Made by a program: the position numbers
In this document: positions 39,101 through 42,100 of the stretch, piece after piece
Numbering within the stretch: position 1 is the stretch's first letter
Layout of the letters: each line of letters begins with the position of its first letter
Source of the DNA: Escherichia coli
GTDB lineage: Bacteria > Pseudomonadota > Gammaproteobacteria > Enterobacterales > Enterobacteriaceae
Reading direction: 5' to 3' (one strand)
NCBI RefSeq assembly: GCF_044324785.1
Contig: NZ_CP172128.1
DNA: 64,000 nt

Positions 39101-42100
39101 AGCGTTATGAAACATTTCCGCAACGGCTAGTCTGTATTAACTGCTTCGGTCATGTAGTCGCTAATACGTTCAGCGGTAATTTTCGTTATTTCATCGTAAT
39201 TCATTTTATCTCCTACAAGATTATTTAATGGAATGAAAAATATCTGGCCTGATAATAATGTTCCAGAATTAATATCTGCAGGCTATGTTAAGTTGTCCCC
39301 ACACACAATCTACCTGTTTTCTCGTGTGTGCCACAGGCGCAATACATAAATAGTCTGGCCATTAAGTTCGTAACGGATTTCGTACTCGCCAGCAAAAATC
39401 CGTCTGACCTCCCTGGGTTCAAACTGAAACAACTGTTCTCCCATACGTGGATGAGTTAACAGAATGACCGGTGCCTGTGTCAGGGACTGCACCGTTCTGG
39501 CGGCCGCAGGTTTACTGGCCAGCACCAGAAAATCATATAACCGCGCCAAATCAGAAAGCGCCTTACTGGTCCACTTCAGTTCCATCAGCGTGGCACCGGT
39601 AACGGATTGTCAGTACTGAGGCTGTCCGCCCAGGCCTGTACAGCCTGATGGTCGATAACCTGTCCGGATTTCACATCGTCCAGGGCTTCCAGCGTCAGGC
39701 GATTACGCTCCTCCTCCTGGGCAAGCCATGCAGAAAGCGCCTGTTTGATAACCCAGCCCCGGGAGCGTTCCAGTCTGGCGGCCATCTGGTCGACTTTATC
39801 AGCCATTGGTAATGGCACATGCGCGGTAATGACTTTTGTTGCCTGTGCGGTATTGTTTTTCATTTGCATACCCGATTAGTTGTTAATCATATTTAATCAT
39901 AGTGATTACTTTCAGACGGAACAAGGCAAATAATGCGCGTCAGCGCATGTAAGGCGGCACTCCGTTGTTGCATATGGCACAGGAGTAAAACCGCCGAAGC
40001 CCGGCGTAAGCCGGTACTGACTGATAGATTTCACCTTACCCATCCCCAGCCCTTGTATGTAATAGGACTCGATGGCTAGCTACCATCATATGAAGCAGAG
40101 TGAGCTTGTCCCAGCCCTGAACAGTCAGACTTTGATTAGCAGCAAAAGCCCTCTGCTTCACCTTTCACGCCAGCATTAACATTGAACGGTTGCCAAGAGC
40201 GATGACTCTGCATGTACAAGGGGAATAGGCGTGATGGTTTGGTGAAAGGAGAATATTCATGTTTCAGTTAGGTATTGATGTCAGCAAGAAAACGCTGGAT
40301 TTGTGCCTGCTGCGCGAAGGCGTAAAAGGCAGAGTTAAAACCCGAAAGCTTCAGAATGATATTAATGCTGTCAGCGCGGTAATAGCCTGGCTCAGTAAGC
40401 AACATTGTAAACCTGAAGATGTCCATATCATCATGGAAGCCACTGGTGTTTATCATGAATCACTGGCTTACGGGCTTCACAAAGCCGGGGGCCGGATATC
40501 ACTTGCCAACCCACACAGGGCAAGAGAGTTTGCCCGGGGTATGGGAATGCTGACCAAAAATGACCGGGTTGATGCTTATATGCTGGCTTGCTATGGCGTG
40601 CTTAAAGCACCGGAGCCATGGCTTCCTCCACCGGAAGAAGTCCGCCATCTCAGTGCACTGCTCCGCAGACGTGATGCTCTTGTGGCTGACAGTACTCGCG
40701 AAAAAAACAGGCTGGAAAAATACCTGGCAACAGACACACCTTCTGTTATAGCTGAATCCGTAGAGGCAATGATTGGTCAGTTGAACGCAGAAATTAAACG
40801 TCTGGACAGACTGATCCGTTCACACCTTAACCAGCATCCTGAATTAAAAAAGGATTTTGACCTGCTGACGTCAATAAAATCCGTAGGTTATCAGTTAGGT
40901 CTGAATATGCTTGTCATCCTGCGGAGCCATGATTTCGCCACAGCAGAACAGGTGGCTGCATTTTTAGGTGTCGTTCCCGTTGAAAAATATTCCGGCACCT
41001 CGGTCAGAGGGTGTCCGAAACTGTCAAAAATTGGTCCGCCGGAAATCCGGGCGAAACTGTATCTGGCTTCGTTGTGTGGTCTGAGATTTAACCCATTGAT
41101 GAAAGCGATGTATGAGCGATTATGCCTGAGAGGTAAGGGCAAAATGTGTGCCATTGGTGCGCTGATGAGAAAACTCGTGCACTGGTGCTATGGCGTACTG
41201 AAGACCCAAAAACCGTTTGATGTGGGCTATTTGCCTTCATATGCGCGTAGCGCATGTAAGGCGGCATGATGTAGTTACATATGGTACAGGAGTAAAACCG
41301 CCGAAGCCCGGCGTAAGCCGGTACGTATTGATAGGTTTCACCTATCCCATCCCTGCCCTGCGAGGCCATACGGGCTTTCAGCGATGATGAAGTATAGGTA
41401 AGCCCTTTTAACCCCGTTAGCGCGGCTATGCCGCGCTGTATCGGGGACTTAGTGCTGACAGCTTGCTGGCAGTACTTAGGGGGCTGTACGTCGGAGTTCA
41501 AGCGATTTTTCTTGACAGAACACGGTAGCTGCTAAGCCATACCCGCTTTCAGCCATGAGAGAGCTTCTGTGCGCGGTCGGAGTGGTCCCGACGAGGGTTT
41601 ACCCGAAGTCGGGACGTATCTCCGCGTTAGCGGGGTCAGTTTGGAATTCGGAAAATAAACCATGTTAAGACTATTTTTTAGCCAAAGGGCTTTCAGGAAT
41701 CGCCAGAATGGCGGGACAACAGTGGTTTTGGTGTCCGAAATCGACCGGTTTCGGACATTGTTAAACAGATATATCCGAAAGTCAGCGAAATTACTTTCGG
41801 ACATGCATTATAATATGTACACCCATTTCGTACAGAAGATCTCACTATGTCTCGAATTTTTGCCTATTGTCGGGTTTCCACTCTGGAACAGACGACCGAA
41901 AATCAACGTCGGGAAATCGAAAGCGCGGGTTTTAACGTCAGACCCCAACGAATAATCGAAGAACAAATTAGTGGATCAGTAGCAGCCAGTGAACGTCCAG
42001 GTTTTAACCGGTTGCTTGATCGTCTGGAAAGTGGCGATGTATTGATAGTCACAAAACTGGATCGCCTCGGTCGTAATGCAATGGATATCAGGAAAACAGT

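Follow-up and report, generated by a model that had tools for sequence, protein, structure and literature searches.

Positions 40054-41528 of a 64,000-nt stretch of Escherichia coli DNA (NCBI RefSeq assembly GCF_044324785.1, contig NZ_CP172128.1; hereafter the window) hold an insertion sequence (IS) of the IS110 family, made up of a non-coding left end, a recombinase (transposase) gene and an unusually built right end. On either side of it lie the two halves, T_L and T_R, of a structured plasmid sequence that we call T, and the right end itself begins with a paralogue of T, here T', followed by a hairpin-rich segment, Y. Unlabelled coordinates are positions in the window, and labels such as L003 or L006 denote comparison sequences. 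We consider it very probable that this is a previously unnamed, IS621-like bridge-recombinase element with a predicted bridge RNA; none of the sources checked gives it a specific IS name, while NCBI does name IS621. The element combines a plasmid-replicon target with an unusual, target-like module in the right end.

The boundaries come from comparison with the uninterrupted target. An ordinary IncFII backbone (L003:2501-2723) matches both flanks, L003:2501-2619 corresponding to 39936-40053 and L003:2618-2723 to 41529-41634, and T is therefore a plasmid sequence split by the element. Rejoined in silico, the flanks give a 90-nt product that 6,141 E. coli records contain without a break, at 90-99% identity, and the uninterrupted target occurs in 3,991 of 5,426 complete E. 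coli genomes, with nearly all copies on F-type plasmids. The ~120-nt T_L sequence, 93-96% identical to ordinary IncFII backbone, is found in 6,194 E. coli records, again nearly all plasmids. There is a CT on each side of the element and a single CT in the empty site, and all five relatives have CT flanks as well; a repeat search found no terminal inverted repeat at the element ends.

These comparisons recast what had been seen in a first-pass annotation of the same DNA, which described ~95-bp direct repeats on both sides of the transposase gene and read the upstream copy as a right end abutting the left end, as at the right end-left end (RE-LE) junction of a tandem or circular intermediate. 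The repeats are real: a repeat search places them at 39942-40046 and 41249-41353 (105 nt, 88% identical, spacing 1307), MAFFT widens them to ~39933-40053 and ~41241-41359, and the final ~29 nt of the transposase open reading frame (ORF; 41241-41269), stop region included, do recur in the upstream copy. The junction reading fails, since the rejoined flanks are contiguous in the plasmid backbone, so that the upstream repeat represents the target's left half and the further structured segment marked at 41530-41635 its right half. That segment is thus genuine as a feature, but it is target DNA outside the element and not a bridge-RNA candidate. The right boundary moves too, the true right end (41528) lying ~170 nt past the downstream repeat.

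Assignment to the IS110 family, already proposed in that annotation, is borne out by the recombinase. It scores 206 bits against NCBIfam NF033542 (cutoff 140), contains the domains PF01548 (residues 4-157, 3e-26) and PF02371 (residues 202-286, 2e-16), and aligns over its whole conserved length with IS621 (8WT6; residues 3-323, E = 9e-50); against the ISCro4 recombinase E is 1.6e-47, both of these recombinases coming from solved bridge-RNA complexes. The catalytic residues D7, E60, D102, D105 and S248 are all present, aligned with those of IS621, and homology to the relatives stops near residue 324.

The left end, first noted as ~200 bp of non-coding DNA and measured here at 205 nt (40054-40258), is supported as the predicted bridge-RNA region by guides that co-vary with their flanks. 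RNAalifold applied to eight left ends predicts 51 pairs, seven of them with compensatory change, arranged as a 5' stem-loop and, after it, a pair of stem-loops with internal loops, a layout matching the three stem-loops of the IS621 bridge RNA (PMC11208160). The left ends of relatives align throughout except for a patch at ~40106-40147, and the predicted guide segments occupy homologous left-end positions in all six elements compared (Table 1). When these six elements, with five different targets, were compared all against all, the left guide matched its own flank exactly over 9-11 nt, as against 3-6 nt for non-cognate flanks, and the right guide over 5-7 nt, as against 3-6 nt; the right guide co-varies with the flank in L006, L008, L017 and L018. 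Compared with L006, the window is 55% identical in the guide loop and 94% in the donor loop. Strand rules also agree with those of IS621, in which the left guide pairs with the bottom strand and the right guide with the top strand, core included (PMC11208160). Two pLVPK-type relatives (L010 and L011, 63% identical in amino acids) are omitted from the guides in Table 1 because their ends differ and their guides misfit the present flanks. With the recombinase as query, a scan of genome contigs yielded just three relatives, a number too small for covariation analysis in depth, and a metagenome scan with the 14-mer CTTGTATGTAATAG returned 120 loci that we regard as chance matches, because none had the conserved left-end motifs.

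Table 1. Positions of the element's features and of the pseudo-sites, with the relatives used for comparison (window coordinates unless labelled; aa, amino acids; nt, nucleotides).
Feature	Position	Strand	Remarks
Insertion sequence, IS110 subgroup, IS621-like, 1,475 bp	40054..41528	+	Target split exactly at both ends
T_L, left half of target (upstream direct repeat)	39936..40051	+	93% identical to L003:2501-2619
Left CT core dinucleotide	40052..40053	+	Alignment to uninterrupted target, ...CCCAGCC-CT-GCCAGA
TGTAAT, -10 half of predicted junction promoter	40058..40063	+	In-silico RE-LE junction
Predicted bridge RNA	40069..40249	+	Consensus fold of eight left ends
Predicted 5' stem-loop	40069..40089	+
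Predicted target-binding stem-loop	40091..40160	+
Predicted donor-binding stem-loop	40161..40249	+
Predicted left target guide, CCCAGCCCT	40110..40118	+	Equals target left flank + CT; in target-binding internal loop
Predicted right target guide, TTAGCAG	40136..40142	+	Reverse complement of CT+GCTAA at right junction
Candidate donor guides, ACGGTTGC (40186-40193) and TACAAG (40215-40220)	40186..40220	+	Read from sequence
Recombinase (transposase) gene, 336 aa	40259..41269	+	Last ~10 codons within T'
T', paralogue of intact target (downstream direct repeat)	41238..41387	+	85-88% identical to intact target; CT at 41358-41359
Y, hairpin-rich conserved rest of right-end module	41388..41490	+	83% identical to L006
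Right-end terminus, 38 nt	41491..41528	+	TTGACA -35 box 41512-41517; end ...AACACGGTAG
Right CT core dinucleotide	41529..41530	+	Alignment to target
T_R, right half of target	41531..41634	+	95-97% identical to L003/L004/L005 backbone
Pseudo-site behind L001 junction (L001:2990-3003)	6908-6926	-	ACAGTAT-CT-GCTGAG, IS91-family gene
Pseudo-site behind L142 junction (L142:3000-3010)	L005:4609-4625		ACTGGTG-CT-GTTAAG, exonuclease gene
L006, Enterobacter bugandensis IncFII plasmid			79% nt; equivalent target position, next to repA; predicted guides CCTTCGCCCT and GGCAG match own flanks
L008 and L009, E. coli and E. albertii F plasmids			75% aa; inserted just upstream of ssb, leading region; predicted guides CCCCATCATCT and TCAACAG match own flanks
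L017, Mangrovibacter			80% aa; predicted guides AACTATCCT and GTGTCAG match own flanks
L018, Erwinia psidii			67% aa; predicted guides TTCCATCCT and CATCAG match own flanks

Candidate segments in the predicted donor-binding loop fit the element's own ends, ACGGTAG-CT and CT-TGTA. The candidate donor guide ACGGTTGC matches the right-end terminus ACGGTAGC at seven of eight positions, and the other candidate, TACAAG, is the reverse complement of CTTGTA at the left-end start; here there is no covariation to draw on, because donor loop and element ends are both invariant among relatives. Two side observations touch this region. A 17-nt inverted repeat (82%) pairs 40079-40095, in the 5' stem-loop region, with 41235-41251, at the end of the recombinase ORF and the first T' hairpin, and may be due to chance; and at L143:4147 (NZ_CP049202.1) an IS66-family element interrupts the left end at the equivalent of 40157, inside the predicted bridge RNA.

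The two ends also carry halves of what would be a promoter. Joined in silico, they set TTGACA (41512-41517) 17 bp from TGTAAT (40058-40063), and the joined ends would, on this prediction, create a sigma-70 promoter. Both hexamers are conserved among relatives, TGTAT.TAA is invariant in eight of them, and the right terminus is conserved at the element end in L006, L008, L009, L013, L017 and L018, beside flanks matching the right target guide. By analogy with IS621, we posit that excision would join the right and left ends at CT and so build this TTGACA-17 bp-TGTAAT promoter, from which the ~180-nt bridge RNA and then the recombinase gene would be transcribed. The target-binding loop would pair with CCCAGCC-CT on the bottom strand and CT-GCTAA on the top strand, the donor-binding loop with the element's own ends, and the DEDD/Ser recombinase would exchange strands at CT, making insertion orientation-specific with no duplication beyond the shared CT.

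The comparison with IS621 ends, suggested at the outset as a check, gave the same layout of left and right ends. With IS621, ISCro4 and IS622 the element shares a DEDD plus Ser recombinase, a left end of ~200 nt upstream of the gene with a predicted 5' stem-loop, target-binding loop and donor-binding loop, a CT core, a left end beginning TGTAT, a right end finishing A.GTA.-CT (the IS621 ends being read directly) and a predicted promoter split over the RE-LE junction. Protein similarity to IS621 is nonetheless only moderate, and whereas IS621 inserts into chromosomal repetitive extragenic palindromic (REP) sequences, the target here is the edge of a plasmid replicon. The right end differs as well: 259 nt with a target paralogue, as against ~105 nt with nothing comparable in IS621 (L144). 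Elsewhere in the family, too, elements have a fixed guide directed at a sequence that is conserved in many mobile DNAs. IS4321 and IS5075, of the IS1111 type, target the terminal repeats of the Tn21 family; they belong to the other subgroup and, unlike the present element, have their guide RNA downstream of the gene. ISEc21, of the IS110 type, targets codons in IS3-family transposase genes (PMC11187229). In neither case is the target, as it is here, the distal edge of IncFII replicons.

What, then, is T? Ordinary IncFII plasmids have it just past ori and repA, with the tir/CPBP gene on one side and the 'repA4' ORF on the other. Conserved and structured, it ends IncFII-type replicons on their distal side, at the 3' edge of the 'repA4' region; leading-strand synthesis reportedly begins near the 3' end of repA4. 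A covariance model of T built from 11 copies scores T_L at 133.9 bits, T' at 138.2 bits and a third, uninterrupted copy in the window (1589-1717, minus strand) at 135.9 bits, so the repeat is not a product of chance. Three hairpins of T are kept through compensatory change (12 pairs, 99% paired, four changed on both sides), and none of 500 shuffles did as well; a terminator-like hairpin lies on the minus strand of T_L and T'. The model finds further members downstream of an SLT gene on an F-type plasmid (L008:756-889) and on an Enterobacter plasmid (L011:4175-4304), T being one of a wider family of structured plasmid modules. A T-family copy is also present, with no IS110 ends, in a Serratia fonticola plasmid (L015:2337-2467). 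A BLAST comparison of T, T'+Y and the L015 module with 50,697 phage records gave no match, and no likeness to G4-type origins was detected; a literature search on ssi/G-site sequences yielded nothing usable for T as a G4-type primase site. The copy at 1589-1717 adjoins the IncFII replicon that the plasmid itself has. On the left this copy is wholly cognate to the predicted guide, and on the right, where it reads CTGCCAG, it differs at two positions from the guide's CTGCTAA; by sequence, it is a near-cognate target that stands empty on the plasmid carrying the element.

Unusual for such an element is its right end. The T'+Y module there is structured and ~290 nt long, and its first ~150 nt constitute an old target paralogue: over 41252-41387, and across the insertion point, identity to the uninterrupted target (L003/L004:2511-2647) is 85-86%. 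The flanking direct repeat exists because the right end carries this module, as does the excess of right end (259 nt) over left end (205 nt); in relatives lacking it the right end measures ~185 nt and the left 210 nt. A second repeat, of 30 nt, had escaped the first-pass annotation: 41358-41387 recurs at 41529-41558 (spacing 171), marking a target-like CT site within the right end and the true right junction. The module is present in the right ends of L006, L013 (Serratia), L014 and L019 (Klebsiella), degenerate in L017 and absent from L008 and L009, whose right end is 186 nt, whilst that of L018 spans ~690 nt (2434-3115) with an unrelated 129-amino-acid ORF on the opposite strand (2501-2890) that may be passenger DNA in the same slot. 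Right-end content thus varies among relatives, and the right-end interior is a variable slot.

Not all of the module evolves alike. Between the window and L006, identity is 60% at third codon positions, 82% in the hairpin part of T', 83% in Y and 60% in the part of T' that mimics the target core, from which the T' hairpins and Y appear to be under constraint whilst the core mimic drifts. The T' core mismatches the elements' own targets in L006, L013 and L014 and is therefore not a guide; of the initial proposal that the element's ends encode a bridge RNA, the left end retains its place, through the three-stem-loop fold and co-varying guides, and the right end does not, as its target mimic fails to track targets. 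The T' core of the window is nearer to the E. coli T than to the T' copies of L006, L013 and L014, which points to exchange with plasmid copies at a later time. Folding of the module gives z = -2.2; seven homologues retain its hairpins, and Y is present in 352 plasmids. Consensus energy for T'+Y is -60.2 on the plus strand and -52.1 on the minus strand, the single-sequence z values being -2.2 and -2.5, so that the functional strand leans to plus.

As to what the module might do, our best guess is that it may be a 3' structure acting in cis, or may insulate the recombinase gene from the junction promoter; its position could let it set the 3' end of the recombinase transcript ahead of that promoter. 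At the equivalent place L008 has an apparent stem-plus-U-run terminator, GAGCATCTGCTCTTTTT, read from the sequence. We hold it unlikely that T'+Y is instead a working surrogate of the split T, repairing damage to the host replicon, or a priming site for a single-stranded copy-out intermediate. T itself may, under such a surrogate function, be an insulator or terminator at the replicon edge or a single-strand priming site; if so, an intact T-like unit would have been placed 171 bp from T_R, and an IS would be carrying a functional surrogate of its own target.

Other plasmids hold remnants of the element. In L005 and L012, T and T_R are separated by 171 nt between two CTs (T-CT-171 nt-CT-T_R), with neither left end nor recombinase gene; the L012 scar sits in a working IncFII replicon. 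In both, diagnostic bases change from native-type to right-end-type, going left to right, across a shared ~50-nt block; this is the mark of a homologous crossover between T_L and T', which deleted the left end and the recombinase gene and left the 171-bp scars. A further right-end remnant (L007:3001-3178, ~86% identical to 41350-41531) is truncated within T' and lies upstream of ssb in the F leading region; remnants of this type occur in 169 F-type plasmids, joined to the target used by the L008 and L009 relatives.

A different rearrangement is seen in most ColV plasmids (L001 type) and in L142, where non-cognate DNA is joined precisely to the first base of the left end and the right flank is still T_R. 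Both junctions trace to pseudo-sites (Table 1) that can be set beside the true right junction, ACGGTAG-CT-GCTAAG: each matches the right-flank guide region at five of the six positions after CT, and they match the right-end terminus at 5/7 and 4/7 positions respectively. In L005 the pseudo-site is ~1 kb upstream of T in direct orientation, and the L142 structure is the exact deletion product predicted from it. These two independent rearrangements fit off-target recombination of the excision type, guided by the same RNA, in which the true left junction would have recombined with a pseudo right junction. Inversion was considered as the origin of the L001-type left flank and set aside, the predicted reciprocal junction being absent from all E. 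coli genomes; a deletion, or a later loss, is the likelier course. The L001 junction, ACAGTATCTTGTAT, also reproduces the IS621 right-end terminus and left-end start.

Is the element still mobile? The same recombinase accession (WP_096984501.1) occurs on a second plasmid of the same strain, the 67-kb pLH10-b-1-C (L141, NZ_CP100533.1 17799-25883). There the element (~4044-5518) is 99% identical and sits at the same CT of T, its outer flanks differ from those of the window, and the replicon is intact in the order yacAB - T_L - IS - T_R - repA4 - ori - repA. Several points must be set against our interpretation of the locus as a bridge-recombinase element. Evidence of current activity is limited to these two copies in one strain, because no circle or tandem junction occurs in the 5,426 genomes, and even the two copies could stem from backbone recombination, as T_L, element and T_R are shared together at 99% between differing outer flanks. 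A right end exceeding the left is unusual for the IS110 subgroup (PMC11208160). Within the left end, the match of the candidate left donor guide to the right-end terminus is broken by one conserved mismatch, the single-sequence fold is no stabler than shuffled sequence (z = 0.06), and the covariance-model check proposed with the first-pass annotation came back empty, an Rfam E-value scan of 37000-45000 returning no match. Finally, none of the E. coli genomes contains T_L-CT-GCTGAG, the product reciprocal to the L001 rearrangement.

Four other explanations of the repeats and the right end deserve to be weighed, two of which concern the architecture of the element as a whole. A tandem dimer, or the remnant of a circle junction, in which the upstream repeat would be a right-end copy set against the left end, would account for the repetition of the final ~29 nt of the recombinase ORF and of ~90 nt beyond it. 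Nevertheless, in plasmids free of the element the upstream sequence runs on directly into the counterpart of 41531-41634, it stops at the target CT and not at the right terminus, and it has neither Y nor the TTGACA...ACACGGTAG end; moreover, the RE-CT-LE junction such an arrangement predicts (...AACACGGTAG-CT-TGTATGTAAT) is not found upstream of 40054, elsewhere in the window or in any of the 5,426 complete E. coli genomes. Together with the empty site, this refutes the idea, to which we give next to no credence. We also think it highly improbable that the element is IS1111-like, with a seekRNA downstream of the gene in T'+Y and a T' that resembles the target because it is the guide. Such an element would fit a right end that is the longer non-coding end, structured and similar to the target, but the recombinase groups with IS621 and ISCro4, whose bridge RNAs lie upstream, and the segments that co-vary with the flanks sit in the left end. 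The mismatched T' cores of L006, L013 and L014, evolving at the neutral rate, speak against a guide there, as do L008 and L009, which have cognate left-end guides and no module at all. Nor was an inverted repeat found near the right terminus, the only end-linked one (40079-40095/41235-41251) being 277 nt away.

The remaining two concern the module alone. ISPpu9 of Pseudomonas putida offers a precedent for a mobile passenger, as it has an optional structured module, ssr9, downstream of the recombinase gene, which is also found solo in the genome, has its own end boxes (A' and B') and forms its own circles (PMC12288879). The likeness is plain: an IS110-family element, a structured module downstream of the gene, and copies of the module found alone. 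Were T'+Y, or its 171-bp distal part (41358-41528), a selfish passenger mobilised in the same way, the solos would be transposition products, in keeping with their position exactly between two CTs in T (L005, L012), with the L007-type remnant in a different target upstream of ssb and with the modular right ends of the relatives. However, unlike ssr9, the module has no left-end-like box: its left boundary reads CT|GCGAGG and not CT|TGTATG, so that nothing there resembles a left end that the donor loop could bind. In each of the two solos, a native/right-end hybrid, the crossover falls within the shared block and not at CT, a homologous-crossover signature; L007, truncated inside T', has no defined left end; and ssr9 is not reported to be a paralogue of its element's target, as the module here is. 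We therefore judge such mobilisation improbable. A more serious contender, though one we still doubt, is that T' is captured target DNA with no function, kept T-like by gene conversion, so that its conservation does not reflect selection. The nearness of the window's T' core to the E. coli IncFII T, the neutral rate of the target-core part and the existence of close relatives without the module are all in its favour. It sits poorly with Y, which is 83% conserved against 60% at third codon positions and has no plasmid counterpart for conversion, and with hairpins kept by compensatory changes across divergent copies. A second copy inserted into T' (a T'_L-CT-LE junction) was not found in E. coli genomes.

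With the bridge-recombinase interpretation as the preferred one, the element acquires a wider interest. The site addressed by its predicted guide belongs to F-type plasmids, the main carriers of virulence and resistance genes, and the element would therefore offer a natural case of RNA-guided insertion that is specific to plasmids, from which tools for tagging or disrupting plasmids of this kind might be developed. Related loci add natural traces of what is mostly known from engineered systems, namely guides reprogrammed between close relatives, deletion scars and pseudo-site rearrangements.

The queried span, 39900-41700, is 100% identical to plasmid pLH10-b-1-A from poultry E. coli. T_R ends at 41634, where it is cut by a Tn3-family inverted repeat starting at 41632. 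This repeat opens a small unit (41632-42483) in which a serine recombinase gene of 196 amino acids (41847-42437) lies between 49-nt inverted repeats of Tn3-family type, 82% complementary, reading GGGGTCAG...ACGGAAAATA...TAAGAC; the unit has no target duplication, as the 5 nt outside the repeats differ (TTAGC and AAGGA). Beyond it follow the eit transporter genes, and on the other side of the element locus lies a relE/copG toxin-antitoxin pair (39310-39869, minus strand).

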